Shown here: positions 4,279 to 44,712 of the stretch, piece by piece
Position numbering within the stretch: the stretch's first letter is position 1
Layout: each line of letters opens with the position of its first letter
DNA from: Candidatus Omnitrophota bacterium
GTDB taxonomy: Bacteria > Ratteibacteria > UBA8468 > MWAK01
Length of the DNA stretch: 64,000 nt
Assembly: GCA_043797665.1 (NCBI GenBank)
Contig: JAZDPL010000073.1
Location: forward strand, 62,009 to 126,008
Direction: 5' to 3'
Notes under the pieces: generated by a model
Told to the model about the DNA's origin: nothing
The model's input: the letters and a program-made list of their open reading frames with translations, nothing else
Database searches by the model: none
Made by a program: the position numbers and the translations under genes

Positions 4279-6207
4279 TTAGCCAACGCCGATGAGAATC
4301 GGATTGATTTGTTGACCGGAAAGGGCATTGATCGCGGTCCAGACGCCAACCGCACCAATCAGCCCCAGGATTAAACCCAGGAAGAACGGCACCGTCCGGC
4401 GGTAAACGATTGGCCCGCCGTAACGCAGGATGAGAGATTTGATTAACCAGGCTAAAAAGATCGAGAACCACGCGTAACGCATCACGTAGGTATCCGCGAT
4501 GGGGAAACCGATGTAGTGCAGGGGCCACCACAGAAATTTCTGGCGCATCACCGCCAGAAAGAGCATAACCGCAGCGCCCAGTCCGGCGAAGCCCAGACGG
4601 GGCAGGATGACCTGGACAGTTGGCGGGTTTGTTATCTTATCCTTGATAAAGTTGGCGATTGCAGAAGGCATACCAACGCCGTAGAACCACCCGTTGGGCG
4701 CGTTAAGCGCTCCGTACCGGTAACCTATTTTCACAATCATCCAGGCAGAGATAAAGTAAGAGACCACCAAAGAAGCGATGATTCCCCAGAAGAGAAGTCT
4801 GGGTTTTATCTTTGCCTCTTCCTGGATTTTCAGTCCGTTGGCGGTAGAAGCCATCACTGTGGTCCTGATATCTGAAGACCAGACGTATTGCAGACCCAAG
4901 GCGGTGTATCCGGACGGTTTCACCATTGATGGCGGCAAGGTATAAGCGGTAAAGTCCGGGGGGACGCATTGGCTCCGGGCAAAGCCGATTCCTGCCTGGC
5001 TGATGATGCGGGTTAAACCTAAGAAGACCACCAGTACGAAGAAGAGAAAGAGAAGGAGCGCCAGAAAGGACATCCCGGCATAAGACAGGAACCCGGCCAA
5101 AAGAATGATGGAGATTAACCCGCCGAAGACCGCGGTGCGGTAGGAGATAATTTCCGGGGAATCATCCGCCTCTCCTTTCCCGAAGGCCTTTCGGAAGACC
5201 GCAGATAGGTGTTTCCGGCCGGTCCAGATGAGGAAGAAGAAAAGGACAACCATCGCCCCGCCGCCCTGAAAGGAGGTGGCGGCAGAACCTCCCGCAAAGA
5301 CTTCGTTATGCCCCGGCAGGGAATAACCGGTGACATTGAACCAGCCGGTCTGCAGTTTAGAGACCAGGTGGAAGAACCACAGGGAGAAAGCGATATCTAA
5401 ACTTAAGAGATAGGCAAACCCCATAATGGGGAAACTGAGGAGGAAGGAGAGCGAATCGGTATTCCTGAATATATTTATGGCGTATTCAAATGAAATTCGC
5501 TTAAAAGCCGGGAAGAAGTAATTTAACCCGTTGATAGAAATCAAGATGAAGGGAATCGCAAAGCCCATCCACATAACCTTGTCGTAAAACAGGGAAGGCA
5601 GTCTCTGAGATGCTGTCTCCTTCCGGCACATCTCCAGAGGGACAAGGGCTAAGGGGAAGATGAGCCGTTCGTTCTCCATCCATTGCTTGCGGAAGATGAC
5701 CGCTAAAGAAATGGAAAGGAAAGAGAAGAAAAGGAAGGGCAGGAACCAGACCACAAGAGGTTTCAGCCAGGGGAGGAAGGAGACCGGAACGTTAGGGGGT
5801 AGACCTTCATAGAAGTAGAGGATACTCTGGAAGTCCTGGTTCACCAGGCAGGTCTTAATCTTGTCTCCAAAGGTGGCTACCCACTCGTTGGCCGGGCTGG
5901 CAAAGTAGGGGATGCCCGCGATGACCGGAAAGAGGTTTCCCATCACGCCCCAACTGGGTACCACGCAGGCTTCCGAGACCATAATAAAGATAAGCAGCAA
6001 CTCCGGAGGGCTAAAGATGAGTTTGCGGTGGACGAAGGATAATGCGCCGCTTAGCAGAATGACCACCAGAAGCGCCAGGAGGGCTCCGGCGGTCATAAAA
6101 TCAGAACAGAGTCCGTTCCCCTGAATTTTCAGCAGGAGTAAAGGTTCCAGCGCCGCAATTCCGGCAGACAGGACCAGACCGGTCAGGAACGCCCGTTTCA
6201 TCGCCAT
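4279..6207 (-). CDS. Large polytopic membrane protein, putative transporter (resembles DUF6785/DUF6784 proteins)
   Basis: 642 aa with many hydrophobic helices; motifs FRKQWMENERLIFPL, WWPLHYIG and KSLILRYGG...PFFLGLILG. Last gene of a GH operon. Confidence 0.7.
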   Translation of the reverse strand: MAMKRAFLTGLVLSAGIAALEPLLLLKIQGNGLCSDFMTAGALLALLVVILLSGALSFVHRKLIFSPPELLLIFIMVSEACVVPSWGVMGNLFPVIAGIPYFASPANEWVATFGDKIKTCLVNQDFQSILYFYEGLPPNVPVSFLPWLKPLVVWFLPFLFFSFLSISLAVIFRKQWMENERLIFPLALVPLEMCRKETASQRLPSLFYDKVMWMGFAIPFILISINGLNYFFPAFKRISFEYAINIFRNTDSLSFLLSFPIMGFAYLLSLDIAFSLWFFHLVSKLQTGWFNVTGYSLPGHNEVFAGGSAATSFQGGGAMVVLFFFLIWTGRKHLSAVFRKAFGKGEADDSPEIISYRTAVFGGLISIILLAGFLSYAGMSFLALLLFLFFVLVVFLGLTRIISQAGIGFARSQCVPPDFTAYTLPPSMVKPSGYTALGLQYVWSSDIRTTVMASTANGLKIQEEAKIKPRLLFWGIIASLVVSYFISAWMIVKIGYRYGALNAPNGWFYGVGMPSAIANFIKDKITNPPTVQVILPRLGFAGLGAAVMLFLAVMRQKFLWWPLHYIGFPIADTYVMRYAWFSIFLAWLIKSLILRYGGPIVYRRTVPFFLGLILGLIGAVGVWTAINALSGQQINPILIGVG

Positions 6208-6259
6208 ACAGTATACCCTTTTTCCATCAAAATTTTCAAACGGGCGGGAAGAATATAAG

Positions 6260-8251
6260 TCACCGCCTTAAAGCGGATTGGCCTCTTTGAAAAAGTTTGC
6301 GGATTTTCTTTGCGGCCGGCTTGGGATGGCCGTAAAAATCTATAATGGATGTATTTGCGGTACAGGGAAAACTGTCGTGTCCCATCCAGATAATAATGCC
6401 GCCGCAGGCCGGAAAACGTGCCTGGCATGCTTCCACCGCGATTGACAGAGCCTGTGCCTGGCGTTTCTGGCTCCACCGGACATACTCACCCAGGTTTTTT
6501 GGCCCCCGGCCTTTTTCCCGGATAAACTGCGGCCATTCTATCCACCAAGTGGAAGTCCGACGCCAAAGAGGATTTTCTGCTTTGCCGGGCACCTCCGGAC
6601 AATTGCCCCGAAACGCACGGATGACCTTGACAGAACTTGCTCCGGGCGCACCAACCTCTGACCGAAAGAGTGCGTCGTCCTTCTGCCAGTAACTTCTCCA
6701 CCCCTTCTCCAGATTTCCGATTGCCTTCCAGGGACCGTGCACATCCCAGTGCAAACCTTTGCCGAAATCTTTTTTATCAGCGGTGAAGCGGGGTCCCCCG
6801 GCTGATGTCGGCAGAAAGCGCCGCGTCGGGTCTCTTTTGGCAACAATACTTTTCAGCCGCCTGATAAGAGGGTGGCTGCACTCAACCGGTTTTCCGATAC
6901 CAACCTTGCCGCCCTTCAAATCTCCCTGCAATTCGTTACCTCCGCACCAGAGAGATAGAGAGACGTGGTGCTGTCGCCGGCTGATATAGGATTCGGCAAT
7001 CTGAGCCATTTCAACAATGATTGCTTTATCTTCCGGCGGCCAGTTATCTATACCCGACGAGGACAAGGGGAATTCTTGCCAGACCAAAAACCCCAGTTCA
7101 TCACAGAGGTCATAGAAAGCCCCCTTCTCCAGATAACCTCCGCCCCAGACGCGTAAAATATTGCACCCCAGGTCTTGATAAAGTTTCAGTCTTCGGCGAT
7201 AATCGCCGGGAGTTACGTCGGCGAAATTCGGCCGGAGCGGAGTCCAGTTTACTCCCTGCAGGAAGACCGTCCGGCCGTTCACCACGCATAACCAGGGGTC
7301 AGCTTTTTCGGGCGCTTCCCGGCACTGCGACCAGGCCAGAGATTTGAAACCGACCCGTCGCGTAACCCGGTCATTTTCCTTTCCTTTTTCGTCAAGCAAC
7401 CGGCAGGACAAAAGGTAAAGAGGTTGTTTTCCCTGTAAGTTCGGCCACCACAAATCCACCGGTAGACCGCTCCAGGAAAAACCATCTCTATTAAATTTTG
7501 ATGCTTCCAGTTCTTCCGTGCGCAACGCAAGGCCGTCCTTCTTCAAAGAAAGTCTGACCAGATAACGCCCCGGACCCGCCGGAACCGAACCCGAAACCCG
7601 CAGGGAGCCGGTCTTGTCGGAGAGGTTAACATCGGTGATGCAGCGAAAATCATTAATTTCCTTCCTGTCAAACGATTCCAAAAGAACCGAATCCCAGATG
7701 CCCGTCTGAACCAGTCTCGCGGTCCAGTCCCAGGTGTAATTGAAGCGGGGCTTCCAGTCTTTAATCCGGCTGGTAAACCCGAATTGTCCCAGCCACCGGG
7801 GAGGATAGTCGAAGATTATGGTTAAGAAATTATTCTTCTTTCGCAAATAAGGAGTGAGGTTGAATATGTGCGGGATAAAAGAACCTTTAAATTGTGCAAC
7901 TTTCCGGCCATTGACAAATATCCAGCCGCTGTAGTCAAGCCCCAGGCAATTCAGGCGCCAGGAACTTCCGGTCCGCAGCCAATGGTCTGGAATCCGCACC
8001 CCGTAAATCCAGTGGCGGTTTTCCACCCACTCACAGTCCCGTCCGTTCAACCCCTTGTTCCAATCCGGCAGAATTCCGGCCTTACGCAGTGCGCCCTGAA
8101 CCGAACCGGGTACCCTGACGCTTATGCCCGGCACTTCGGCGTGAGGATGGAAGGAATCCTTGGTTCCTTCAGGGAGCCACTGATAGGGCGTCCACCCTGA
8201 TAAACGCCACTTCAGTTGTGACAGGTCATACGTTCTTTTCATCGGCGTCAA
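6260..8251 (-). CDS. GH2 glycoside hydrolase (beta-mannosidase-like), no signal peptide
   Basis: WDW, VNGRTVFLQGVNW, NILRVWGGG, YDLCDELGFLVWQEF, LWCGGNE and SEVG motifs. Confidence 0.85.
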   Translation of the reverse strand: MTPMKRTYDLSQLKWRLSGWTPYQWLPEGTKDSFHPHAEVPGISVRVPGSVQGALRKAGILPDWNKGLNGRDCEWVENRHWIYGVRIPDHWLRTGSSWRLNCLGLDYSGWIFVNGRKVAQFKGSFIPHIFNLTPYLRKKNNFLTIIFDYPPRWLGQFGFTSRIKDWKPRFNYTWDWTARLVQTGIWDSVLLESFDRKEINDFRCITDVNLSDKTGSLRVSGSVPAGPGRYLVRLSLKKDGLALRTEELEASKFNRDGFSWSGLPVDLWWPNLQGKQPLYLLSCRLLDEKGKENDRVTRRVGFKSLAWSQCREAPEKADPWLCVVNGRTVFLQGVNWTPLRPNFADVTPGDYRRRLKLYQDLGCNILRVWGGGYLEKGAFYDLCDELGFLVWQEFPLSSSGIDNWPPEDKAIIVEMAQIAESYISRRQHHVSLSLWCGGNELQGDLKGGKVGIGKPVECSHPLIRRLKSIVAKRDPTRRFLPTSAGGPRFTADKKDFGKGLHWDVHGPWKAIGNLEKGWRSYWQKDDALFRSEVGAPGASSVKVIRAFRGNCPEVPGKAENPLWRRTSTWWIEWPQFIREKGRGPKNLGEYVRWSQKRQAQALSIAVEACQARFPACGGIIIWMGHDSFPCTANTSIIDFYGHPKPAAKKIRKLFQRGQSALRR

Positions 8252-8272
8252 ATTTTTAAATGCCTGATTTCC

Positions 8273-10351
8273 TCAGAAAATCCGGAAAAGGCTGGTGCTC
8301 CGCGGCGGAAAATTCCGGACAAAAAAGTCTTTATCTTTGACAATCCGTTTTCTGGCAAAGAGGTCGTAAACGGAAGTTCTTTTCTTGAGTCTGATTTTCT
8401 TTACGCCGCCGTACTTTGTGTGTATCGCCAAAAAACTTTTGTTGACATAAATAACGTCGCCCGCGTCTCCGTAGATGTGCACCCCGCAATATCTGGCGAT
8501 GCTGCGGAAAAGGGGGAATGGCATCTCCGGTACCGCACAGTAAATAGATGTCCAGTCCCGGAATTTCCGCAGGACCAAACCCGGCTTTTGGTTGTCTAAA
8601 AACTCTCCCAGCACCTCCGCGTCCCTGTCTTCGGCATAATATACCGGATTCAACCAGCCGTCCAGCACCTGGCCCGGGATGTCGTAGAAACAGCGGGGGT
8701 TGATACCTTCTGTAATTTCGGGCATATTGTCGGTGAGCCTCAAATAAGGCAGAGCGGCCTGATATTTCACCGACGCCTTTATTCCGGTAAGAGCCCTCAC
8801 GTTATCCAGCGAAAACCCTTTATTGTTTATTATTCCCGGAGCGTAAAACCACACGCACAGCTTGTCTTCGGCCTTAACCTTTAGATTCATTATTGTCCGG
8901 CAAGCGTCGCTTACGTAAAAAGCGTTCAGGAAGATGTACATCTTATACTGCTTGTGATTCAGGTTCCCGATGTCGCTCAGGAGATACGTGTCGTAAGGAC
9001 TCCCGATACGGCTTAATTGGTACTGCAGGTTCCGGATAATAAGCGGATAGGTTACGTTGTTGTTAATGTCCTGGTAAGCGAAACTTTCTTCGTCGATGAA
9101 CACCGCGATTTCCGAAACGGAAGAACGGTCTAATCCAAGGCTTCCGTCCCCTATTTTCTTAAGATTCCGCATCAATGCCAGAATTTTGCGGTCAGCGAAC
9201 CACCCTGAGTTCTCCAGGTCGAACCACCACATATCAACGCCGGATGTCAGGGTTCTTGCGAAGTCCCTCTTAATTATCGCCAGGGAGTCTTCCAGGTTTT
9301 CCGGACGCCCGAACGCATCCTGTTCCGGGGAGGCAAGGAAGGTTCTGGTATCGGTCTCCGCAAACCACAGTTTTTTGTGCATCTTCACGGAATCAAGGGT
9401 AGTCATACTGGCGGCTGTCCCGCCCATCCCGCGGTTGATGTAATTGTTAGGGGACGAAAGAAAATCTATGTGCCTTGATTCCAGCATTTTTTTGAGGGCA
9501 AGGTGTCCGGAATGCTGATAGAGATACGGGTGCCAGGCAAAGACTAAATTATATCCGTAAAATGCGCCGCATAAAACATCTCTGGATGAAGCGCTTTTGA
9601 CCGCCTTCCCGAAATATGTGATATCCTGAACAATGAGTTCCGAAAGGAATTCGAAATAGTCGATGACGTTTCTCTCGGTGGATACGTCGCGGAATCCGGT
9701 CCGGTTGCATCGCAACCTCTCGTCCCGCGAAGGAATGCCGACATTGCCAAAATCCACCCGGTTATTGTTCCACTCTCTTTGCAACTCGGATAGGTTTTTG
9801 TATTTCCTCCGGAGCCAATTCCGGAATGTCCGTTCCATCGGCCGGGAAAAATCGCTGATGCGGAAATCGACGTATCCCCGGTAAAACCATTCGCCGGTCT
9901 CTCCGGCGCATAACATATAGCCGATAATCCTCTCCCGGTAAATCTTTTCCAGATACTTTACCAGGAGGGTCAATTTTTCCTTCCGTTCTTTTCTCCAGAG
10001 TTCTGAGGCCAGGGACTGACCGTGGCGCCCCCCCTGGTCGTCCCGCTGCATCTCATCGGGATGGCTTTTTTCCCACCAGGCGGGTGCGTCCACTTCAACC
10101 CTGAGAAGGAATTTTGCGTCCTTATCCGCCCGGATAACTGCGTCAATGTCTTTCTTTATCTTTTTGTAATCGTAATCTTTCCGGATTATGTGCTGAAAGA
10201 CATGAACCCCGCAATCTGCAAACTGGGCGTTATAAATTCCATTCGGGGAGGGAATGGCAAACTGCATGGTAAAAACGGGTTTGTTATTAAGATGCAAGGC
10301 CGGTGTGCCTTTGCAGTTTTTAACTTCTGCTTTCAATTTCCCGTATACCAC
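8273..10351 (-). CDS. GH42-like beta-galactosidase family protein, no signal peptide
   Basis: GETGEW acid/base region, [26 protein letters not shown] and a C-terminal trimerisation-type domain. Confidence 0.7.
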
Positions 10352-10995
10352 ATATTATTCCCTTGATTGGGAGGGATACTGGCTGCCTCACAGGACACCC
10401 AACCGGCATGGCCATCTACGTAGAGGACGTTTAAACCGACCTTGTGAAGTGTCGGCAGGGAAGTATCGATAAACATAACATCTACTGCTCCCCGGTCACC
10501 CATCATGGCACAGTCCGAGGGATTTGGGATACCGGTTATTCGGTGGCGGTCTCCCATATAATCAGCAGGGTGTCCGACCGCGTCTCCGCAGATATAAAGG
10601 CTCAAACCATAATGCCAGTTTGGTGACCAGGATATATCACTGAAATTCGCAACCCCGTTGCCGTATATATTAGCGGTATTCGTGCTGTTGGAAGGACACT
10701 TAAGTATCCTGCTGTTTGTTATGTAATTCATCATTTCTCCTCCGTCGGGAGCATAGTAGCCGACGTCGGAGCACCACCAGACATTAGCCGGGCTTCTTGC
10801 CAGCGGAAGCCAATCATCATAGTCCTGCTCATACATCAAAATACATAACCCCAGTTGTTTCAGATTGTTCAGACACGCCGCCTGCCTGGCTTTGTCCCTC
10901 GCCTGACTGAGCGCCGGCAGCAGCATCGCCGCCAGAATGGCAATAATCGCGATGACCACCAGCAACTCAATTAAAGTGAATCCTCTTTTCTTCAT
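10333..10995 (-). CDS. Prepilin-type N-terminal cleavage/methylation protein (DUF1559, H-X9-DG)
   Basis: [45 protein letters not shown], and H...NVLYVDGH. Confidence 0.92.
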
Positions 10996-11009
10996 TTTAC
11001 CCTCATTTT

Positions 11010-13526
11010 TTAAGGCTCGACAAATATCAAATCTCCGTACAAACGTGAACCTTCACAGTATCCGATTCCGCCGGCCCATTCCAGCCAACCCCGTCGGCCC
11101 TGCCCATCGTTGTCGTTCACCAGAGCGGAAAACCCGATTATTTTTCCCGGAACCGGTGCCAACAGAAGTTCATTTAGCGGAATAGCGGCTTCACAGGTCC
11201 ATCCGTCCGGGTCGTTCTTTATGCTCACTATGGCTTTATCAACCAGTTTTCCTTGAGCGGCACCAAATGCCTGGTCGGCAAAATTTTCCCACACCTGTGG
11301 ACCTTCCGGTGTCAGGGCAATGGTAAAAACCCGGCCGTGACTGACCGGCGACTCCGGCTCGGGGTCAACGGCAAACTGGATACTGTCTCCCGCCCAGGTC
11401 CGGTCACCTTTTTCATCCTGGACAAATTTATCATCGTAAACCCTTCCGGCCAGGTAGAGGTTCCTTTCGTCCCAGAGGGTGTAGAGAACGGCGCTTAAAT
11501 CATTTCGGCCATGCCACTCCTGAATTTCTCTAACCTGGCTTGCCTGTTCCAGCCGGACCGGAGTAGCCCTGTCCCATTCTGTCTTAAGAAGTCCGTCTAT
11601 TTCCGGTGCAGAGAGGGTTTTCACGCAGGTCAAAAAGTCCATTGTTTCTTCGCTGTGATACACAAGACCCCTGGCTGTTTTCAGCGTCGCCGCTATCCCG
11701 TACCAGGCATCAGGAATAACCCCGCCGCTTTCAACCGTAAACTTCAGCGAGGTTTCTTCAGATGGATTCAACTGCTCCAGCGTGGCGTGAACGGGTTCCA
11801 TAACCCAGCCTCCGGGGACCGCAAGGCTGACATCGCCGCTCAACGCCTTTTTCGTACAATTGTCAACGCTTACCGAAATTACCGGTTTTTCCGAGGATTT
11901 AACCAGATACGGTCTTAACTTAATGGTTGGCTGCGCAAGAATTCCCTCCGGCTTGACGTGCATATAGACAGGGCTCTCATCCAGGTCCAGACTCAAAACT
12001 CCGTTTTTCGGCTGCAGGGTGGTCGGGTTACCCATAATGTCTACGACCTCAATTTTATCATTGATAACGTTCAGGTTCAATTTCTGGTTGCCCTTGTTGG
12101 ACCAGAGCACGGAAATCGGCTCACCTTTTTTCTCGAAATAATAACCGGTGAAGCCCGCTCCCATTTTCAGGCGGGACACCGGCCGGGCGCCGTCAAGCTC
12201 GGAAATCAAAGCCGCATAACTTAGATAAGCCGATTTCGGCGTAAGGTCCCGGTAGAGCATGCCGATATTATTTAAATTGGCGGAGGACTCGTCCGTAAGG
12301 ATATCCGTCCCGAGAAACCAGAAGACCTTGCTTATTCCCTCGCCCAGAAAAACAATGGTCAATTTGGTCCTCAACTCGGTATCCGCTTTGGTGTCGGGTC
12401 CGGAGGGATAGTTCGCCATTTCGGTCATCCACAAAGGTTTGTCGTACCCGCGTTTCTTCAACGTCTGGCCGATTTTCGCGCCTTCCCGCGCCCCCTCTAA
12501 GTAATTGCCGGTATGGATGCCGAAAATATCAAAATAATCACCGCCTCCGTTTTTCAGCACTGCTTCCAGGAAGGGATTCCAGACGTCATAATTCTCGTCT
12601 CGCTGAGTATCCAGAATCGACTTCCCGATCGGCATACTTAAACTGCCCAGGTGTATTACGCAGTCGGGGTCTTCCTTTTTGGCTGCCTGATAGGACAGTT
12701 TAAGCATTTCCGTGTAAGATTCTACAGGTCCGTTCCAGAAATCAATCAGGTTTGCTTCGTTCAGCAGTTCCCAATTTTTGACCCTGTCTTTGTAACGCTT
12801 AACCGACGTAGCAAGGAAATCAGCAAAATCCTGTACATTCTTGGGCGGGGTGTTCAGATAACCGGTACCGTTTGCCCATTTCGGATAACTCACCACGCAA
12901 GCCAGGATATTCAAATGGTGTCTTTCCGCCCTGGGAATAAAGTCGTCAAAATGCGCCCAGACATATTTGTCCTTTCCTTCATTCTCGGCAAAATTCCAGG
13001 GCCAGTCCATCCTTATCCACCGGATGCCTATCTTTTCGTAAAGTTCCAGGAGCGGGTCATCCCAATCAAACCAGGAACAGATTCCGAAAGGGGAATCAGG
13101 GTTAAACTTCAGCGGAGGCGCCGGCGGGATAATTCCAAAGGTGGATTTCTTCTCCGCCAGGACGTCTTTGCCGGAAAGCAATTCGCAGGATACATAAAAT
13201 ATGCCTTTCTTTTTTAACCGGAGGCTGATTTCCCGGGAGATTTCCTGGCTGTTTGTATACTTTATGGCTATACGTTCATCTTTTATGGATTCGCCGTAAT
13301 AATCGAAAATGCAACATCTTAAAATTGCCTCCGGTACTTCCCTGGGATAAGATTTAACCGTAACCGTTAACCTTACTTCCTCGTCATAGTTGAATATGTT
13401 GCCGGTTTTGGTGCTGGCAATGGAAATGATTGCAGATTCCACCCTTGCGCCCGGCACGAGGACGACCGCTGCCAGGAATAATGTTTTAAAGAAATTATTT
13501 TTCATGAAAAATAAACCCTGGTCCAT
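11010..13526 (-). CDS. Secreted clan GH-A (GH39-like) hydrolase with Ig-like and CBM9-like domains
   Basis: Signal peptide (alternative start 13505); GIRWIR, WELLNE and LWMTE catalytic-like motifs; C-terminal [32 protein letters not shown]9-like domain. Confidence 0.72.
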
Positions 13527-13529
13527 TTA

Positions 13530-14282
13530 TTATTGCATTAACATACCACCACAAACCGGCAAATTTGCACCAGTAATAAAGTCTGCAAGCTCACTGGAAA
13601 AAAAGACACAGGCTTTCGCAATGTCATCAGCATTTGCAATACGTCCAAGCGGCGTACGTTCAACATGTCTGGTGAGCAATATGGAACTGGGAGATTTTGT
13701 TAGATCAGTCCACACCAGGCCAGGTGTAACCATATTCGCCGTGATATTGAATTTTCCGTAGTCACGTGCCAATGCTCGAGTCATGGTAAGAAGGCCGCCT
13801 TTCGCCGTAATATAGGGAGCGCTTGCTTCATTTAGCTCCCACATACAGGTAGTGCCAATATTAATAATGCGACCATAATTTTGCTGGCTCATCGTTGGCA
13901 ATACTGCTTGGCAGCAGTTGAAGGCGCCATGTACGATGACCTCCCAGGAATACACGAAATCTTTCCATTTTCCCTCCCCGACCGTTCCGCCGTGAAAGCC
14001 TGGAAAGGCATTGTTAATCAATACATCAATACGTCCGCCAAATTCATTTTTTGTCTGTTCCGCCATTGTGCTTACCGAGTCGGCATCTGAGACATCAGTC
14101 TGTATGGCAATCGCCGCACCACCGTCAGATTTAATCTGCTCAACAATTGCAATTGCGGCATCGGCATTATGAGCAAAGTTTACCACAACACGCGCACCCT
14201 CGCGGGCGAAACGCAAGGCTGTTGCTGCGCCAATACCACGACTGGCGCCGGTGATAATCGTCACCTTATCTTTTAATAACAT
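13530..14282 (-). CDS. SDR family oxidoreductase (FabG-like)
   Basis: TGASRGIG, NNA and YITAK motifs. Confidence 0.92.
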   Translation of the reverse strand: MLLKDKVTIITGASRGIGAATALRFAREGARVVVNFAHNADAAIAIVEQIKSDGGAAIAIQTDVSDADSVSTMAEQTKNEFGGRIDVLINNAFPGFHGGTVGEGKWKDFVYSWEVIVHGAFNCCQAVLPTMSQQNYGRIINIGTTCMWELNEASAPYITAKGGLLTMTRALARDYGKFNITANMVTPGLVWTDLTKSPSSILLTRHVERTPLGRIANADDIAKACVFFSSELADFITGANLPVCGGMLMQ

Positions 14283-14309
14283 GAAAAAACCTCCCGCATC
14301 TGTTTTTAT

Positions 14310-15656
14310 TCATTCCTCTTCGTCGTCGGCCGGTTTACTTTCAGCAATAGTTGAATTTTCCGCTTCTATCCGGGTTGCCGGGTTCAAAATGAAGTTTGTT
14401 ATGTCGGTATAATTCAGTTTTAAGGAGCCTGTTTTGGAGAATGTCCAGGTTCGATTCCCTTTTTCAATGTCCATCCGGGAGCGTTTTTCCGGTGTTCCGG
14501 TTACCGACAACGAAGCACCGTCCGGGACCACCAGGCTTGAACCGATCGGACTGAATTTCACGTTGACGCTGGAATGCGGTTTGCCGCCTTTCCAGAACGG
14601 CTGACCGCCTCCCCAGACCACCGGTCCGCCTTTGGGAATATAATAGGTTCCGATAATGTAGATGACATCGCTATCTTTGCCGCCGTGACTTTCGCTGATA
14701 ACACCTCCGTTTGCGGGGTCATCTACGACGCAGTTCTTAAAATCAGAGTTCCGGAGTTCCATTATGGATTTGCTTGCGAGGTAAATATCGATGGCGTTAT
14801 TTAAAAATTTTGCATCTGAGAACGCGCTATCAGAAAGATCGTGGGCTACAAAAATGGCGTAAGCGGCCGCTTTTTCGAAAACGCAGTTCTTAACTGTAGA
14901 ATCGCTCAGACCCAACTGGGAGCCGCTCGCAAAGATATGAGCGGTGGCGTTCTTCAACGTGCAATCACTTATTTCCATACGGCTGACGTCATGCAAAAAA
15001 ATGTTATAGGTACAGTCTTGAAAGAGACAATTCCGGACCCGGATGTCGTTCGACATAAATAGGCCCAAACCATAATAACCTTTTGAAATAGTGCAATAGT
15101 CCATTTCCAGCGCCGGCACGTTTACCGACTCACCGCAGTAATATGCGGAAACGCCGTATTTCTGAGGGGCATCTTTACCGAGTGATTCAAAAGACACGCA
15201 ATAGAATTTCCCTTTCGCCGATTGACTTAAAAGAATGTAGGCGTTCTTCCCGGGTTTTGGCATATCAGTATATATCCTGTTCAACGCTCCGGGATTTTTT
15301 TCCCCGTCGGGATTTCCCCGGTTGACAAAAACGCCCCCGTCTACAGACAGGCCCCCGCCGGCGTCAATCGCAATGTTTACCTGCTTGTTACCGTTGGAAG
15401 AATAGTCTATTTCCAGAATGCCGCCTTTTTTAATGGTTCCTTCTTTAAAACTGATGTTGATGGGCGCCGCACCTTTGGCAACGGTAATTTTATGTCCTTC
15501 TTCAATAACGAGATTATCTCCGCTCCGGGGGACGCCGATGTCGTTCCAGGTCGCCGGGTCGTTCCAATCACCGCCGCGGCTTGAGGCATAATCCGCCCCG
15601 GACAAGTAACCGCCGAAACCCGCAATAAACATCAAAACCATTATGGTCCTGCGCAT
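14310..15656 (-). CDS. Secreted right-handed beta-helix protein with a G8-like N-terminus
   Basis: Signal peptide; GGDWNDPATW..GVP..GD cap; repeated IRVRNCLF, ISDCTL and VKNCVF beta-helix turns. Confidence 0.65.
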   Translation of the reverse strand: MRRTIMVLMFIAGFGGYLSGADYASSRGGDWNDPATWNDIGVPRSGDNLVIEEGHKITVAKGAAPINISFKEGTIKKGGILEIDYSSNGNKQVNIAIDAGGGLSVDGGVFVNRGNPDGEKNPGALNRIYTDMPKPGKNAYILLSQSAKGKFYCVSFESLGKDAPQKYGVSAYYCGESVNVPALEMDYCTISKGYYGLGLFMSNDIRVRNCLFQDCTYNIFLHDVSRMEISDCTLKNATAHIFASGSQLGLSDSTVKNCVFEKAAAYAIFVAHDLSDSAFSDAKFLNNAIDIYLASKSIMELRNSDFKNCVVDDPANGGVISESHGGKDSDVIYIIGTYYIPKGGPVVWGGGQPFWKGGKPHSSVNVKFSPIGSSLVVPDGASLSVTGTPEKRSRMDIEKGNRTWTFSKTGSLKLNYTDITNFILNPATRIEAENSTIAESKPADDEEE

Positions 15657-16780
15657 ATTTCCCCCCTTAAAACCGTTTGCGTTTTCGCCAAAGTTCTGAC
15701 TCTCGCCTTTCCGGTTGATTCCCGGACGACCAATTCCACCGGAAAGGAGAACACCACTTTCTTATTTGTCAATTTTCCCGTTATTTGCCCCAGCAGAATG
15801 TCGGCTGCCTTTTCACCCATTTGGTATTTTAGTTGGTTGACCGTTGTCAAAGACGGGTAAAGGTTAGAGGTGAAATCCAGGTTGTCAAATCCCAGTACGG
15901 AAAAATCCTGCGGGATGTTGATTTTCATTTCGGCAAGTCGTTTTAAAGCGCCCCAGGCGATGTCGTCGTTAAGACAGAAAGCCGCGGTAACTTCCGGCCG
16001 GTTTTCAATAACCTCTCGGATAAAATGATAACCGGCCGGCCCCCCCCTTTTTTCCCCGCGGAAAATAAGGTTTTCGTTTTCAGGAAGACCGTATTCCAAC
16101 CGGGCTTTTTTGTAACCGTCAATTCTTTCCGACAGGGAGGTGGCTTCCGGTTCGCTCAAAACGGCAATCTGTTTGTGACCTAAGTCCAGCAGGTATTTGG
16201 TGGCTAAGTAACCACCCTGTACGTTGTCGGAAAGTACCGCATCAACATTAAATTCCGGTAGATGCCGGTCGACAAAGACGAACGGGATTTTCTCAGCCAA
16301 CAGTCCTCCATAATAAGCATGATTCTGGTTACCGGTAGCGGGTGCGACAATAAAACCAGCCACTGAACCGGTATATTTTGAGAAGTAGTCTCTCTCTTTT
16401 TCGGACGAGTTTTCGGTATCGCAGAGAATCAATTTGTAACCTTCCTGGTCAAGTTTACCCTGGATACCTTTCAGGATTTCCGCAAAAAACGGCCTGGTTA
16501 TATCCACCAGCATGACGGCGATTGCCTTTTCATCCCTTTTTACTTCCGGAGAATATGAAATTTCCGTGCCGTATCCCCTTTTCCTGACCAGGTATTTTTC
16601 CCTCTGAAGTTTCAGTAAAGCCTGCCTGATTGTCACCCGGCTGACCCTGAATTTATCAGCCAGCGCATATTCGGAAGGGATAATTTCACCCTTGACCAGT
16701 TTACCTTTTTCTATCTGCTGTTTCAGAGAATGGTAGATTTGGAGATATAAATATTTTGCCGGGCGGCTTTTTATCTTCAC
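15641..16780 (-). CDS. GntR-HTH / LacI-type sensor fusion regulator (AraR-like)
   Basis: PSEYALADKFRVSRVTIRQAL GntR HTH plus periplasmic-binding-type domain (IPQDFSVLGFDN, LTTV, VRES). Start placed at GTG 16780 from promoter geometry; the ORF track gives 16825. Confidence 0.9.
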   Translation of the reverse strand: MKIKSRPAKYLYLQIYHSLKQQIEKGKLVKGEIIPSEYALADKFRVSRVTIRQALLKLQREKYLVRKRGYGTEISYSPEVKRDEKAIAVMLVDITRPFFAEILKGIQGKLDQEGYKLILCDTENSSEKERDYFSKYTGSVAGFIVAPATGNQNHAYYGGLLAEKIPFVFVDRHLPEFNVDAVLSDNVQGGYLATKYLLDLGHKQIAVLSEPEATSLSERIDGYKKARLEYGLPENENLIFRGEKRGGPAGYHFIREVIENRPEVTAAFCLNDDIAWGALKRLAEMKINIPQDFSVLGFDNLDFTSNLYPSLTTVNQLKYQMGEKAADILLGQITGKLTNKKVVFSFPVELVVRESTGKARVRTLAKTQTVLRGEICAGP

Positions 16781-16786
16781 AATCAT

Positions 16787-16816
16787 ATTATACCCCAGCC
16801 GGGATTTCTTTGTCAA
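16787..16816 (-). promoter_or_regulatory. sigma70 promoter for the regulator/GH operon
   Basis: Minus strand TTGACA-18 bp-TATAAT. Confidence 0.7.
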
Positions 16817-16841
16817 TACCTTCATAATACTTTAATAATAC

Positions 16842-16871
16842 TTGTACAATACAACTTCCTTATGTTATAAT
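16842..16871 (+). promoter_or_regulatory. Extended -10 promoter overlapped by a candidate AraR-like operator
   Basis: TGnTATAAT at 16863-16871; inverted repeat TTGTA-CAA-TACAA at 16842-16854 over the -35 position. Confidence 0.6.
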
Positions 16872-16877
16872 TACAGC

Positions 16878-18005
16878 ATGGATATCATAACTTCCCGGCA
16901 AAGACTGTTAAGAACATTAAAGGGAGAACCAACGGACAGGATTGCCATTTCTCTGTATGAATTTGACGGAATTTACGATTCCTGGATTCACAACCATCCG
17001 GAATATGAAGCGATTCTAAAGTATGCGGAGGGAAAAACCGACCGGCTCTATTTCTGGAACCCAATCGGCGATAAGCCGGTTTTATTTTTGGGAGAAGTTA
17101 CCCCGGAGATTATCCGCGCGGATACCTGGAAAAAAGGCGATTCAGCCTACACCAGAACAACGGTCAAAACGCCGAGGGGCGAAATCTCCAACCTGGTTCG
17201 GCAGGACGACAACATACACACCTGCTGGGAACTGGAAGAATTTTGCAAGACCGAAGAGGACGCGGAAAAAGTCATTTCCCTGCCTTATATTCCCTATAAG
17301 CCGCTGGTGGGTTCGTTTTTTGAATTGGACAAGAATCTGGGCGAGTCGGGTATCGTCCTGGGAGATTTTCCGGACGCCCTCTGTTTAACCGTGGGCATCT
17401 TCGGGTTCAGCCGGTTTTTAATGATTTACACCGACAACCCGTCGCTTATTTTCAGGTTGCTTAATTTTTTTCAGGAAAGGATTTTGGATTACGCCCGGCA
17501 TCTTTTGGAAAAAGGGGCAGTTACGCTTTACCGCATCGTTGGACCTGAGTATGCGACTCCGCCTTATCTGTCTCCGACGGTATTTGATGAACTGGTTACC
17601 GGATATGACCGGGAATTGATAGTACTTTTTCATAAATACGGCGCTAGAGTGCGGTTGCATGCGCACGGAAAAATAAGAAAAGTGCTCGCTTCTTTTCTGG
17701 AAATGGGCATAGATGCCACCGACCCGGTTGAGCCGCCGCCGGACGGCGACGTAACGCTTGCCGAAGCAAGGAAAGTTTTAGGCAGCAAAGTAACTTTATT
17801 CGGCAACATTGAGGAAAGACTATTTGAAATCGGTACCAAAAATGACGTGGAAGAGGCGGTCCGGAAGGCGATTGAAGAAGGTGCGTCCGGCGGACCTTTC
17901 GTCCTCTGTCCGACCGCTATGCCCCTGGCCACTCCCCTGGACAGGAAAATCCAGGAAAATATCATCCACTACATAGATTGCGGGTTAAAGTACGGCAAGG
18001 TCTGA
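16878..18005 (+). CDS. Uroporphyrinogen decarboxylase / MtaA-family protein
   Basis: SRQRLLRTLKGEPTDRI N-terminus, LHAHG, GIDATDPVEPPP.GD, TLFGNI. Start ATG 16878 lies 6 nt after the -10 box. Confidence 0.8.
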   Translation: MDIITSRQRLLRTLKGEPTDRIAISLYEFDGIYDSWIHNHPEYEAILKYAEGKTDRLYFWNPIGDKPVLFLGEVTPEIIRADTWKKGDSAYTRTTVKTPRGEISNLVRQDDNIHTCWELEEFCKTEEDAEKVISLPYIPYKPLVGSFFELDKNLGESGIVLGDFPDALCLTVGIFGFSRFLMIYTDNPSLIFRLLNFFQERILDYARHLLEKGAVTLYRIVGPEYATPPYLSPTVFDELVTGYDRELIVLFHKYGARVRLHAHGKIRKVLASFLEMGIDATDPVEPPPDGDVTLAEARKVLGSKVTLFGNIEERLFEIGTKNDVEEAVRKAIEEGASGGPFVLCPTAMPLATPLDRKIQENIIHYIDCGLKYGKV

Positions 18006-27286: not shown

Positions 27287-27928
27287 GTGAAACTGTTCTG
27301 GGAAGTCCTGGGCAAAGAGCAGATAAAACTCTTACCCCGCCTCCGGTTTTTAAAAGAAGAAGGGTTCTACTTATCCGGAGGAACCAGCCTTGCTCTCCAG
27401 ATTAACCACCGTACCTCGGTGGACTTTGACTTTTATAACGAGAAAGAATTTTCTTCAGAGGATATCGTAACCCTATTTCAGAAAAAGATAAAAGATACTA
27501 CTATCGTTCAAACCGGGAGAGGAACTCTGATTACCAAAGCAGGAAATACAGAAATAAGCCTTTTTTATTATCCCTATAAACTTTTAGCGCCTCTTGTCGA
27601 GACCGAAAGCATTGTTTTGACTTCACTGCAGGATATCGCGGCCATGAAATTGGTCGCCATCATTCAGAGAGGTAAAAAAAGAGATTTCTTTGACCTCTAT
27701 TTTTTAGTTAAGACCTTTGGGTTTGGGGAGGTTTTTAAATTGACCTCTCAAAAATATCCGCCGTTCAACCCTTATTTAGGTCTGCGGGCATTAACCTATT
27801 TTGAGGATGCGGAAAGAGAAGATTTAAAAGAAAGGAAAATTGTCTTGTTTAATCCAATCACCTGGAAAGAAGTTAAGGAGTTTTTTATCAAGGAAACAAA
27901 GAACTATTATAAAGAAAAACTGCAATGA
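27287..27928 (+). CDS. AbiEii/AbiGii-type nucleotidyltransferase (putative toxin)
   Basis: FYLSGGTSLALQINHRTSVDFDF, IAAMKL, RGKKRDFFDLY. Confidence 0.85.
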   Translation: MKLFWEVLGKEQIKLLPRLRFLKEEGFYLSGGTSLALQINHRTSVDFDFYNEKEFSSEDIVTLFQKKIKDTTIVQTGRGTLITKAGNTEISLFYYPYKLLAPLVETESIVLTSLQDIAAMKLVAIIQRGKKRDFFDLYFLVKTFGFGEVFKLTSQKYPPFNPYLGLRALTYFEDAEREDLKERKIVLFNPITWKEVKEFFIKETKNYYKEKLQ

Positions 27929-28233
27929 TTACCAGGATTCCCGGGTTCCTTAAGCATGCTTTCCCTTCCTATAATGTGAATATGCTAAATCGGAAGGAAG
28001 ATAAAAGATTGATTATTACTCAGATTTTGAATTATGGGGTTTGGAAAGATATAAAGTGGCTTTACTCTGTCTATAACGAAGAAGATATTAAAAAAATTCT
28101 CAGGGTTCCTGACCGGGGGGTATGGTTCCCTGATGTCTTGAATTTCTGGGAGACCATGCTGGGCATAAAAGTCCCGCCAAAAAAGAGAAAGAAAGCAATA
28201 TTTAACCTCCACCCTGATTTTACCGGGGATTGA
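27925..28233 (+). CDS. Small partner protein of the AbiEii-type gene (DUF6922-like)
   Basis: ATGA coupling to the upstream gene; IITQILNYG..DIKWL...Y motif. Confidence 0.7.
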   Translation: MITRIPGFLKHAFPSYNVNMLNRKEDKRLIITQILNYGVWKDIKWLYSVYNEEDIKKILRVPDRGVWFPDVLNFWETMLGIKVPPKKRKKAIFNLHPDFTGD

Positions 28234-28252: not shown

Positions 28253-28816
28253 CTACTCCAGGTTGGCGTGGCGTTTCCAGAGGTCTTCGTTCTTCAGTTC
28301 CTTCTTTTTCTGAATCATTATCGTGACGATATCTCCAAAAACTACCAGAGCCTGTTCAAAAAGGTTACTCATCGGCTGGATTGAAGAGACACTGGCTGAT
28401 GAACCGGTTTTGGTGGGTGCGGACAGATGGACGCAGAAGTCCGCGATGCTTTTTAGTGTGGATTTCCGGGCAGAAGTGATTAGACCGATTGTCGCGCCTT
28501 TCTCTCCGGCTATCCGGGCAATCTGAACCGGAAGTTTACTCTCTCCGGAACCGCTGGCAACCAGAAGAAGGTCCTTTTTCGTGATGGGCTTTTCCGTAAC
28601 CGAACCGACCGCCTGGCAGTCAATCTGAAGGTGTCCTAACCGCTTTCCCAAACACTGTAAGGCAAGGAAGACCCTGCCGACGCCAAAGATGAAGACCTTT
28701 TCTGCCTTCAGGATTTCCGCAACCAATTTCTCCGCTTCTGCCGGAGTAACCTTTTGAAGTACCGCGCTGATTTCAGCGGTCACCTTCGGCGCTAATTCTG
28801 AATATTCTCTTTTCAT
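28253..28816 (-). CDS. SIS-domain sugar-phosphate isomerase (6-phospho-3-hexuloisomerase-like)
   Basis: FIFGVGR, SGSGES, QPMSNLFEQ and C-terminal RHANLE typical of the PHI/HxlB family. Start 28816 overlaps the upstream stop. Confidence 0.85.
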   Translation of the reverse strand: MKREYSELAPKVTAEISAVLQKVTPAEAEKLVAEILKAEKVFIFGVGRVFLALQCLGKRLGHLQIDCQAVGSVTEKPITKKDLLLVASGSGESKLPVQIARIAGEKGATIGLITSARKSTLKSIADFCVHLSAPTKTGSSASVSSIQPMSNLFEQALVVFGDIVTIMIQKKKELKNEDLWKRHANLE

Positions 28817-29730
28817 GGCACGTCTCTTCCCTTTACCCAGTGGCGCCAATATTTTACTGATTCCCGCAGGTTGTGTTCTAAATGACATTCTTCCGGATAA
28901 TAAGCCCGGTGACGAATCTCCAGAGCCAAAAGGATTTCGTGTTTGGCTTCCGAACGTCTTAGTGCCGCCAGGACTTTTTCGGGTTGAACGTCGCCCTTAT
29001 TATTATACTCCGGAACAAATGGCCAGTGGAAACTACCCTGGTTGTTGCTCTGCTGGATGTGGATGAGCGGAGAGACCTTGCCATAGCGTTCAATCCAGGC
29101 ATAGGGGTCTGCCTCCGGCGCCCCGGGATTCTCCTGGTTCCGGTGGCCTACGTCAAGGCAGAGCAGCATCGGTATGGCCGAACCTTTCATCCGGGAAAGG
29201 AGCCAGTCGTTTTCCTCAAAGGTCGCGCCGGTCTCCCGGGGGGTTGAGGTCGTTTCGTAAAGGAGGTACTTAAGACCCAGTTTCTTACCGTAATCAGCCA
29301 GCCGGTGGTAAGATTCTATCGCCCGCAAAAGTATTTCTTTCCGGCGTTTCCGGTCCCGGTTGGCGTTAACGGTGAGAATCGCAAAGCAGGTGCCGAACCC
29401 TTCCGCACCCAACCCTGCGGTGAGGTCCGCCATCTGCCGGTAGAAGGTTTCGTAAGCCTTTGCTGCCTCGTCGTCCGGATGACCCAAATAGTTCTGGTGA
29501 TGGTTGTGACCGCCGAAGGCGCACTTAATCCGAATATTATTCTTCCGGCAGGACGCCAGCGTTTTTTCGACTAATTTCTTTTGAATCTTTGCCGGCAGCA
29601 GGAAATCAATGACGTCGAAATTGAACTGGATTATGTGGATGCCGCAGGAGGCAACAACATCGGTCCAGGCTTCCGGCTCCATATAGCGGTTGCCGAAACA
29701 GTTGAGGTCAAATCCTAATTTGATATTCAT
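28813..29730 (-). CDS. Xylose-isomerase-like TIM-barrel sugar-phosphate epimerase (EryC-like)
   Basis: NRYMEP, LDVGH, DPYAW and IHIQQ...HWPF..EYN.KG resemble the D-erythrulose-1-phosphate 3-epimerase family. Confidence 0.7.
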   Translation of the reverse strand: MNIKLGFDLNCFGNRYMEPEAWTDVVASCGIHIIQFNFDVIDFLLPAKIQKKLVEKTLASCRKNNIRIKCAFGGHNHHQNYLGHPDDEAAKAYETFYRQMADLTAGLGAEGFGTCFAILTVNANRDRKRRKEILLRAIESYHRLADYGKKLGLKYLLYETTSTPRETGATFEENDWLLSRMKGSAIPMLLCLDVGHRNQENPGAPEADPYAWIERYGKVSPLIHIQQSNNQGSFHWPFVPEYNNKGDVQPEKVLAALRRSEAKHEILLALEIRHRAYYPEECHLEHNLRESVKYWRHWVKGRDVP

Positions 29731-30767
29731 GGGTTTATCACTACTTTTAAGGCACTGTGGCTTTCCACGGTTTCAAAAGCCTTTACGATTTCAATTAAGG
29801 GAAACCGGTGCGTAATCAATTTGCCGGCATCCACTTTTCCGGAAGCGATTAATTCTAAGGCTTCTTTATTCTGGCGTGCCAGAGAGGAAGAGGCACCGCT
29901 GACGAAGAACTCTTTGTAATGGATTTCGTTGGCGTTAATCGTTATCCGGTAGTCATCCTTGGGCAATCCGCCAAAGAGGTTTATCCTGCCCCGGGGCGCC
30001 AGGAGTTTAAAAGCCCCTTCCTGAGCCTGCCGGGAAGGCGCGCAGACAAAGATGACGTCCGCACCCAGGCCGTTGGTCTCTTTCATTACTATCTCCGCAA
30101 GGTCTTCCTCCTCAGAAGCGATGATTCGGTCCGGACTGAATTTTTTTGCTAACTCCAGCCTTGCCTGACTGCGCTGGGTTATCAGGATTTTCCGGGCTTT
30201 GTGCAATTGCGATAAGAGTATCTGGATACAGCCGGCCGGTCCGGCGCCGATAATCAGGACGACGTCGCCTTCCCTGACCGGGCAGTTCTCCCGGGCGTTC
30301 AAACTGCAGGCTAAAATCTCTGAAATGGAAGCTTCGTCAAAGGACAATCCATCAGGAATTTTATTGACAAAACCCAACCGGACCACATTTTCCGGCGGAA
30401 CGACGTATTCCGCAAAACCGCCGTCAGAAGCGTAGCCGATGGCAGGACAGGGTCTGATACAAACATTACTGTTGCCGGAAAGACAAAGCCGGCATTTCCC
30501 GCAGCCGTGTCCGGGCGCCACGCAGACCCTATCCCCTTCCTTAAAGCCTTTCAGTTTTTTGCCTACCGCCTCCACCACGCCGGCAATCTCGTGGCCAATG
30601 ACAATCGGGTACTTTGCCCGGGTATCTCCTTTCCGGAAGATGCGCACGTCCGAACCGCAGATGGCACAGGATTCAACCTTGACCAGAAGGGAATTTCCGC
30701 CGGGCGCTGGTTTTGGTTTTTCCACCAGTTCCATCTTACCCAAACTTACTACCTGTGCCACCAACAC
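29727..30767 (-). CDS. Zinc-dependent polyol/sugar dehydrogenase
   Basis: ICGSD, GHE, CGKCRLC...C, GAGPAG. Start placed at GTG 30767 after a GGAGG SD. Confidence 0.9.
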   Translation of the reverse strand: MLVAQVVSLGKMELVEKPKPAPGGNSLLVKVESCAICGSDVRIFRKGDTRAKYPIVIGHEIAGVVEAVGKKLKGFKEGDRVCVAPGHGCGKCRLCLSGNSNVCIRPCPAIGYASDGGFAEYVVPPENVVRLGFVNKIPDGLSFDEASISEILACSLNARENCPVREGDVVLIIGAGPAGCIQILLSQLHKARKILITQRSQARLELAKKFSPDRIIASEEEDLAEIVMKETNGLGADVIFVCAPSRQAQEGAFKLLAPRGRINLFGGLPKDDYRITINANEIHYKEFFVSGASSSLARQNKEALELIASGKVDAGKLITHRFPLIEIVKAFETVESHSALKVVINP

Positions 30768-30799
30768 TGGTACCTCCCAGATCCTTAAACATTTCACTC

Positions 30800-30849
30800 G
30801 TAGGGGTCGGATTTATCCGACCCGCGGGCTTGATGAATCAAGCCCCTAC
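30800..30849. repeat. REP-like doublet, family A
   Basis: GTAG-GGGTCGGA-TTTA-TCCGACCC-GC-GGGCTTGA-TGAA-TCAAGCCC-CTAC, intergenic within an operon. Confidence 0.85.
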
Positions 30850-30865
30850 AATTATCCAAACTCTA

Positions 30866-34002: not shown

Positions 34003-34013
34003 TATCTCCTAAC

Positions 34014-35279: not shown

Positions 35280-35290
35280 ACGATTACCTC

Positions 35291-36043
35291 CTAAAAAAGA
35301 TAAATTAACCTAAATTCAACATCACTGCCTTTTGCCACAAAGTTTTGCTGCGACATCCATTCAACATGTCCGTCGCAGAAGGCAACATTCACCCCGTTAT
35401 TATGCCGAAAAGCAATCGTTCCTGTATCAGCGGGGTCCACCATTTCGTAATTCCAATATGACTCTTGAGATGCATCGGCTAAGAGGCAGGCATTGCTGGG
35501 CTGTCTGACCTGGCTGTCTTTTACTTCCTTCGACCTGTCGACTCCACAGTAAGCTCCGCTGCGGGTAAGAAATGCGTTGCAACCGTATGACATTAAATAA
35601 CCGGCTCCGGGAACCGTTGTCCGGTCGTACGGATTCCTGTCGGACGGGCAACGCAATACCCCACTCCCGACCCCGATATAGTTTATAAGTTTACCTTCCA
35701 ACCAGTACACCGGGGCATAAGAAGTTCCATTCCAAAGGGTTGGATAGTAACCATCGTAGTCTGCACGGTATAACTCAAACGCCAGGCCCAACTGCTTCAG
35801 GTTGCTGATACACTGGGCCTTCCGCGCCTGCTCCCTTGCCTGGCTCAACGCCGGTAAAAGCATCGCCGCCAGGATGGCGATGATGGCGATTACAACCAAA
35901 AGTTCTATCAGGGTGAAGGCATGTAGGGAGGAAGGGGGAGGGGTGGTAGAATAAGATGACGACCGCAGATTTGTCTGTACCCGACGTACCGACAAAGAAA
36001 ACTTGCGCTCCATTAAAGAAAGGAGTTTAGTTATGAGCACCAT
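35291..36043 (-). CDS. Prepilin-type N-terminal cleavage/methylation protein (DUF1559, H-X9-DG) with an extended leader
   Basis: [66 protein letters not shown] before 36043. Confidence 0.92.
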
Positions 36044-36133
36044 AAATACCTCCGGTTTCCTGGCTACTACACACAGGGATAAGTTTAATTCTAACGTGGG
36101 TACATACCTTCAAGATTTCGGTAATTGGTCCCA

Positions 36134-38215: not shown

Positions 38216-38225
38216 TTGGAATCCT

Positions 38226-40265: not shown

Positions 40266-40278
40266 TGGTTCGTATTTT

Positions 40279-43449: not shown

Positions 43450-43470
43450 TCGTTCCCCCCTTTGAAATTT

Positions 43471-44700: not shown

Positions 44701-44712
44701 TTCTCCCCCCTG

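Follow-up and report, generated by a model that had tools for sequence, protein, structure and literature searches.

Polysaccharide utilization loci (PULs) of the Bacteroidota SusC/SusD type bring together a regulator, a variable protein of the surface type that is specific to the locus, glycosidases both exported and cytoplasmic, and a permease of the inner membrane, and many such loci occur in a single genome. Here, we describe an operon with a comparable gene content in a 64,000-nucleotide stretch of a Candidatus Omnitrophota genome (assembly GCA_043797665.1, contig JAZDPL010000073.1, positions 62,009 to 126,008; this whole stretch is called the window, and positions refer to it unless a contig is named). 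Like a SusC/D-type PUL, the operon (4279 to 16780, minus strand) has its regulator and glycosidases clustered; unlike one, it is accompanied by no SusC/SusD or TonB receptor in the window or the assembly, its variable protein is a probable type IV pilin, and its candidate permease has a predicted OPT fold. We take the operon to work like a PUL without being a SusC/D PUL. A second point of comparison is DNA uptake through the ComP-dependent type IV pilus, which relies on a ligand-specific minor pilin, a retractile filament and a secretin; the corresponding binding and retraction would apply here by analogy.

The pilin belongs to the DUF1559/SBP_bac_10 (PF07596) or H-X9-DG proteins of the Planctomycetota-Verrucomicrobiota-Chlamydiota (PVC) bacteria, with which it shares a class III leader, a C-x2-N-L-K-Q segment, an H-x9-DG end and membership of a large paralogue family, and from which it differs in being short (215 aa). 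At least 41 copies have been counted per Planctomycetales genome, often flanked by genes for proteins with signal peptides (PMC8567305), the proteins have been called solute-binding proteins (SBPs) (PMC4807772, PMC2754498), and the family is mentioned once in the available portion of PMC5352709. In their available portions, these papers leave the function unknown and draw no tie to glycosidase operons, and that of bioRxiv 10.64898/2026.09.21.753266 mentions no pilin or DUF. The Akkermansia MUL2 locus likewise connects glycan acquisition in a PVC bacterium with a pilin-like protein and PilM-type genes; from what is available of its description, MUL2 is a single conserved locus of four genes whose pilin is of the archaeal type, whereas here there are dozens of different pilins, one per enzyme operon (PMC13174399). 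Literature searches, supplements and subscription journals aside, listed no title or abstract that ties DUF1559 pilins to glycosidase operons or that names DUF6785/6784, the family of the operon's membrane protein. There is a real chance that the operon represents an undescribed uptake route.

The reading that we favor, to which we assign a probability of roughly 45%, is that the operon encodes its own glycan-capture pilin working on shared pilus and secretin machinery, followed by periplasmic cutting of the glycan and OPT-type import. The pilin-like protein (10333 to 10995, minus strand; 220 aa, 215 aa when mature; PF07963, PF07596, TIGR02532) has a class III leader composed of a basic leader, a G/F cleavage site, E5 and a hydrophobic helix, and scores 36.2 bits with TIGR02532 (cut-off 16.3) and above the cut-off of PF07963. 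The match to PF07596 (34.4 bits, cut-off 23.3) covers residues 31 to 65 only, equivalent to positions 2 to 35 of the 268-position Pfam model, and the C-terminal motif reads H179-x9-D189-G-H191 (mature numbering). TIGR04294 gave no match to this protein at E ≤ 0.01 and did match the second pilin of the window. A structural model with a predicted local distance difference test (pLDDT) score of 80.5 has a helix at residues 3 to 53 and weak loops in the head. Fold searching with this model returned pilins or pseudopilins as all of the top 24 matches, head-only structures included, at low Z scores (best 6.1, root mean square deviation (rmsd) 3.6, 120 residues aligned) and with ComP among the weak matches (Z 4.9); Foldseek gave a best E value of 0.13 and no pilin at E ≤ 0.001.

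A motif scan of the source genome (a 2.69 Mb assembly, 86% complete) found 54 pilin genes, to which two in-frame regulator-pilin open reading frames (ORFs) were added to give 56 paralogues. Their first 52 mature residues are 81% identical and their heads 22% identical (medians), and across 63 sequences F1, E5, C36, Y50 and C95 are invariant and H179, N184, D189 and H191 nearly so. The DUF1559 protein of the operon is probably a pilin with a conserved scaffold and a variable surface, as far as the model and alignment indicate. A conserved assembly helix, a hypervariable head and type IV pilin topology would also suit an adhesin with substrate specificity, by which the cell is held on particles of glycan or on other cells while its enzymes act and no substrate is moved, and the available text on the pilin-containing MUL2 of Akkermansiaceae proposes an attachment role (PMC13174399). 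Among 65 species genomes of the same phylum, all of one class, a TonB-dependent receptor scores over the cut-off in 11, with one to three copies each, and in none of the other 54, where an adhesin would leave entry through the outer membrane unexplained; we consider it quite improbable.

Evidence for the favored reading, a capture pilin dedicated to its operon, comes from the neighborhoods of the pilin genes. The next ORF of at least 150 aa after each pilin (n = 55) has a glycosidase, carbohydrate-binding module (CBM) or lectin-type Pfam match in 34 of 55 cases, versus 2 of 70 pilin-distant ORFs (Fisher p = 7e-14), the control being 20 randomly drawn 10-kb regions, each 8 kb or more away from all 54 pilins, with 70 of their 140 ORFs scanned. 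These 34 comprise 20 with glycoside hydrolase (GH)-named domains, 3 with DUF4838/DUF6259, which we assume to be GH-like, and 11 with LamG, CBM4/9 or F5/8 domains; 15 of the remaining genes have no match and 6 have others. Restricting the count to GH-named Pfams leaves 20 of 55 versus 2 of 70 (p = 1e-6). On the other side, the gene before the pilin encodes a LacI, GntR, ROK or AraC regulator in 19 of 53 cases versus 1 of 70 controls (p = 7e-8, computed on 19 of 50), and 52 of 53 genes downstream of pilins are co-directional with them. Pilins occur in all 65 genomes of the phylum, with 1 to at least 46 matches each. In about 400 kb from three relatives (G003, G045 and G018), chosen for their pilins and not for enzyme content, homologues of source-genome glycosidases, lectins and secreted pilin neighbors make up 15 of the 54 ORFs that lie up to 5 kb from a pilin versus 3 of 240 further away, using a label set that came largely from pilin neighbors, which favors such families. 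An enrichment of DUF1559 genes beside glycosidases and sugar-type regulators, as the sequence-only reading had anticipated, was borne out in the source genome and in the stretches from three relatives, and the operon is one case of a genome-wide regulator-pilin-enzyme design.

These counts bear on the null explanation, that there is no functional link and that pilins and DUF6785 genes gather by chance in variable sugar islands. Homologue searches and the phylum genomes did not return the exact gene set of the operon anywhere else, and the neighbors of DUF6785 vary; of 8000 candidates scored against the exported glycosidase of the operon, a single homologue reached E ≤ 1e-60, and that homologue has no match at E ≤ 1e-40 in 64 other phylum genomes. 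A chance gathering is at odds with the fixed place of the pilin between regulator and enzyme, with the co-directionality of nearly all downstream genes, and with the repetition of the pattern in three other families, and we regard it as highly improbable. Among pilin pairs with heads at least 40% identical, 4 of 6 share a neighboring enzyme family versus 30 of 1317 other pairs. Such close-head pairs may be locus duplications, and across all pairs head identity relates weakly to shared neighbors (rho 0.09).

The same neighborhoods suggested a second role, that of an adaptor for enzymes. The pilin would here be a pseudopilin cognate to its operon, recognizing the folded exported proteins and either moving them through a type II secretin or displaying them on a filament, with sugars entering through porins and the OPT-fold or other shared permeases. 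Signal peptides were called by eye and by a hydropathy rule, and by the latter 26 of 53 genes after pilins encode one, versus a background of 13.5%. GH-like ORFs of the source genome, counted by BLAST to Pfam-labelled seeds, number 125, and 34 of the 46 signal-bearing ones lie within 5 kb of a pilin, versus 40 of the 79 signal-less ones. GspD above its cut-off and GspE-like ATPases are present, and the gene order fits enzyme export equally well. Against such an adaptor, the exported neighbors have many unrelated folds and often number several per pilin, some pilins are directly followed by apparently signal-less GH29, URO-D-like or PfkB proteins, and characterized type II systems use a single pseudopilin set for all cargo. 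We rate export as unlikely, while treating it as the main competitor.

The second element of the favored reading is the importer. The last gene of the operon (4279 to 6207, minus strand; probable start 6201) encodes a 642-aa polytopic membrane protein with DUF6785 (PF20581, E 6.7e-114) and DUF6784 (PF20580, E 1.6e-29) domains, the only polytopic protein found in the window by a hydropathy scan. Its structural model, built from 98 sequences (pLDDT 95.8), matches barley Yellow Stripe 1 (HvYS1, PDB ID: 7wsr) with a Z score of 23.8 and an rmsd of 3.9 over 549 of 600 residues at 9% sequence identity, the next match having a Z score of 6.4. An OPT/Yellow-Stripe fold is thus predicted with high confidence, as a distant branch and not as a member of Pfam OPT. 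Because of this match the operon holds a transporter candidate, which corrects the sequence-only reading, where the protein was listed as a 642-aa membrane protein. Shared with the OPT/YSL family (PF03169) are the whole-length fold match and a close homologue that passes the Pfam cut-off; distinct are the low identity, the cargo of the known members, which is peptides or metal chelates, and the window protein itself, which gave no match to PF03169 at E ≤ 0.1. Across 18 DUF6785 proteins scanned with PF03169, that 44%-identical homologue is the one that passes, and one more matches weakly, as do five other DUF6785 genes. A sequence search of the PDB with the protein and its 98-sequence profile found nothing, a profile comparison with the OPT-like family of the phylum scored weakly (85% probability, 171 columns), and it took the fold search to resolve the protein.

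DUF6785 occurs in 60 of the 65 phylum genomes. The three DUF6785 genes of the source genome are all co-directional with, and within 8 kb of, a pilin, as are 21% of ORFs. The window copy groups with a copy (L001; support 0.999) that also ends a regulator-pilin-glycosidase operon, its next relatives stand alone, with promoter matches of at least 10 in 5 of 6, and in two further loci (L157 and L140) DUF6785 directly adjoins pilins. Counts of pilins (capped at 46 per genome) and of DUF6785 show a weak correlation with genome size allowed for (partial rho 0.25), among genomes whose kinship makes them nonindependent. A fixed pilin-DUF6785 module was rejected, as a DUF6785 gene accompanies 3 of 56 pilin loci and, among 52 copies selected on long contigs of other genomes, 8 are near a pilin. 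At C63:9641-19944 (L006), DUF6785, a 1458-aa M28/FtsX fusion, an OPT-matching 655-aa protein and a pilin stand among housekeeping genes, and the first three recur in another locus (L004).

Pfam scanning of the 44 ORFs of the window gave no SusC/D, TonB, ABC permease, PTS or MFS match, in agreement with the sequence-only reading that no canonical sugar transporter is present there. The source assembly contains no match to PF00593 or PF07715 (TonB-dependent receptor barrel and plug) or PF02378 (PTS EIIC), one to PF01547 (SBP_bac_1), one to PF00474 (SSS), three to PF07690 (MFS) and seven to PF00528 (ABC inner-membrane component), and, judging by their sequence and location, the seven last-named resemble phosphate and peptide systems and one weak permease. 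We also considered whether conventional transporters elsewhere could explain uptake, and those in the assembly are too few for 56 pilin loci. Pilus and secretion genes are present: 12 strong matches to the PF00437 ATPase (PilB/GspE-like), four secretins, PilT and GspD above NCBIfam cut-offs, and the prepilin peptidase PilD (Peptidase_A24) on the same contig as the window. Genes for lipopolysaccharide transport and 3-deoxy-D-manno-octulosonic acid (KDO), together with the secretins, indicate that the organism has an outer membrane.

One relative of the same family, G053 (85% complete), has 11 SBP_bac_1 matches, of which several lie within glycosidase operons; it has what seems to be a single sugar-type permease pair and no DUF6785 match, and one of its operons (L215) reads LacI, pilin, SBP. 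Because this operon carries both, the pilin is no simple stand-in for an SBP, and a plain exchange of one for the other was rejected. The model of the pilin does not show the two lobes of an SBP fold: its long helix carries a small head, and it aligns with pilins. The sequence-only reading is supported in part: the PUL-like locus without SusC/D and the strong enrichment beside glycosidases speak for it, and the predicted pilin fold and the coexistence with an SBP speak against a pilin that simply takes the place of the binding protein. G053 fits an arrangement in which DUF6785 and SBP/ABC systems serve the inner-membrane step and the pilin another, with the weight of an anecdote from one genome.

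A related possibility is that the pilin never polymerizes, its helix serving as an inner-membrane anchor and its head binding or sensing an oligosaccharide and handing it to the OPT-fold protein or another permease. SBP_bac_1 is scarce, with at most 3 matches in 63 of 65 phylum genomes, pilins and DUF6785 adjoin in the two loci mentioned above, and according to the available part of PMC8567305 such proteins occur in detergent-soluble fractions of Tuwongella. This is hard to reconcile with the near or full invariance of F1, E5 and the whole alpha-1 helix in the 63 paralogues, which goes beyond the needs of an anchor, and with the shared pilin-SBP operon of G053. We judge a membrane-anchored binder quite improbable.

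The operon consists of eight co-directional minus-strand genes separated by gaps of -16, 27, 3, 14, -19, 21 and 52 bp. Their Pfam order is GntR plus LacI-type sensor, Beta_helix, adh_short, CBM9_1, N_methyl plus DUF1559, Glyco_hydro_42, GH2 domains, and DUF6785 plus DUF6784, so that ORF calls and gaps of -19 to +52 bp uphold the earlier description of a single tightly packed unit in this order. The regulator (15641 to 16780, minus strand; ORF open to 16825), which we take to be AraR-like, combines a GntR helix-turn-helix (PF00392, E 1.7e-18) with a LacI-type sensor domain (PF13377, E 4.5e-31) that matches periplasmic-binding-protein models, as is usual for such regulators. It is followed by a 448-aa right-handed beta-helix protein with a signal peptide (14310 to 15656, minus strand; PF13229, E 3.8e-12, and a weak G8 match), which has no meaningful PDB match, and by a 250-aa oxidoreductase of the short-chain dehydrogenase/reductase (SDR) family (13530 to 14282, minus strand; PF13561, E 2.3e-52) that falls below every NCBIfam cut-off shown.

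The exported enzyme (11010 to 13526, minus strand) is a GH39-like clan GH-A glycosidase with a C-terminal CBM9-like domain (PF06452); its ORF spans 838 aa, and the probable start at 13505 gives 831 aa, as called in the protein collection. It matches PDB ID: 5jvk (E 1.4e-13) and PslG (E 3.8e-11), aligning with the NE and TE motifs that are catalytic in GH39-type enzymes, and its CBM9-like domain matches PDB ID: 1i82 (E 8.7e-6). Two signal-less enzymes follow the pilin, a 692-aa GH42-like clan GH-A protein (8273 to 10351, minus strand; PF02449, Glyco_hydro_42, E 7.3e-8; weak PDB matches) and a 663-aa GH2 enzyme (6260 to 8251, minus strand; GH2 Pfams) closest to beta-mannosidases (PDB ID: 5n6u, E 4.9e-55). 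Among 10 fetched loci of relatives that hold a homologue of the GH42-like protein, this homologue stands next to a pilin in 4, and a pilin is close by in 3 others; several of the homologues bear signal peptides. The substrate of the operon is probably a beta-linked glycan.

A sigma-70-type promoter match, TTGACA-18-TATAAT (16787 to 16816, minus strand), agrees with the consensus at 12 of 12 positions, is the best of 21 sites (shuffle mean 12.7) and would serve the operon. It ends 6 nt before GTG 16780, which is probably the start of the regulator, read as a leaderless transcript. A second site, TTGAAA-18-TATACT (6210 to 6239, minus strand; 10 of 12), stops 8 nt short of ATG 6201, the probable start of the membrane gene; this gene seems to have its own promoter. 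Because strong promoter-like sites peak modestly 6 to 9 nt before start codons genome-wide, both sites may be leaderless promoters. An operator common to the two was not seen by eye. Positions 16786 to 16878 hold back-to-back promoter matches for the regulator and a divergent URO-D-like gene, each ending close to a start codon, and an Rfam scan of the window found one tRNA and nothing else.

From the gene content, order, enrichment and predicted folds, we infer a course of assembly, binding, retraction and cargo transfer for the favored capture-pilin route. An inducer, probably a sugar, would release the GntR/LacI repressor, as its domains suggest, and PilD would cleave the prepilin, which would join a filament as a minor or tip subunit using machinery encoded elsewhere. 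The variable head of the pilin would bind the target glycan, and retraction would draw the glycan to or through the secretin, by analogy with ComP. The exported GH39-like/CBM9 enzyme, a glycosidase by family, and perhaps the beta-helix protein, would cut the glycan outside the cytoplasm. The OPT-fold protein, probably a shared importer with its own promoter, would then move oligomers across the inner membrane, and breakdown would be completed in the cytoplasm by the two signal-less enzymes (GH42-like and GH2) together with the SDR.

Several observations weigh against this route. The pilin head has no recognizable carbohydrate-binding fold, and its loops are poorly modelled. Among non-seed GH homologues, 33 of 81, mostly signal-less, lie more than 10 kb from any pilin, and a few pilins sit among housekeeping genes (contigs C1 and C63). 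An exported protein is encoded in 45 of 50 pilin-containing runs, which the export adaptor predicts equally. On the side of import, 53 of 56 pilin loci lack DUF6785, and a co-directional gene with at least six membrane helices is found in only 10 of 56, three of these being DUF6785. In other genomes, a pilin lies within 8 kb of only 8 of the 52 DUF6785 copies, and about 16 of these 52 stand in a conserved housekeeping operon. This string, which holds the commonest DUF6785 (L109 and about 15 others), comprises homocitrate-synthase-like, aconitase, amidase, PfkB-type and CTP-transferase genes, and could point to a cargo other than sugar for this copy. Characterized OPTs carry peptides or metal chelates and are not known to carry sugars. 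TonB_C/ExbD/ExbB-like genes at C52:27278-29089 and a TonB_2 gene on contig C63 are present with no receptor detected, and since the phylum's assemblies are incomplete, that of the source genome at 86%, a TonB receptor could be missing from it. Finally, some DUF1559 genes of Rhodopirellula are stress-responsive, reacting to cold, salt and heat shock, according to the available portion of PMC2754498.

The window contains a second pilin operon (28253 to 46935, minus strand; pilin at 35291 to 36043), which has no membrane gene and encodes a DeoR-type regulator, two exported proteins (409 and 421 aa) that fall into no clear family, an exported GH123-like/CBM9 protein, three GHL6-type enzymes and dehydrogenases. 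AbiEii-type and PIN-type toxin-antitoxin genes interrupt the sugar region at 27287 to 28233 and 47233 to 48694. Elsewhere in the genome, GntR/LacI-type regulators are in frame with a pilin at C8:31840-33723 (L086) and C65:29409-31355 (L074); these may each be two genes without an intervening stop, as the linker holds possible start codons. There are 58 URO-D/MtaA-like paralogues genome-wide, many inside glycosidase and pilin loci, with members in the window at 16842 to 18005, 50206 to 50787 and 55993 to 57150. As a guess, they could remove methyl groups from sugars.

The operon bears on how PVC-type bacteria that lack SusC/D acquire polysaccharides, and on DUF1559, which counts among the largest families still in need of an explanation in these bacteria. 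Under the regulator-pilin-enzyme rule, a ligand class or a partner can be predicted for each pilin, and the predicted OPT fold makes DUF6785/6784 a concrete importer candidate, for which a sugar cargo would be new to the fold. We speculate that, throughout the phylum, interchangeable operon pilins give a shared retractile pilus and secretin machine its glycan specificity, and that DUF6785/6784 is a bacterial branch of the OPT/Yellow-Stripe fold importing oligosaccharides without SusC/D or sugar ABC systems; in this general form the proposal is tentative and somewhat unlikely. If true, polysaccharide uptake would have a third general route, and two large families that have been without a function would gain one.

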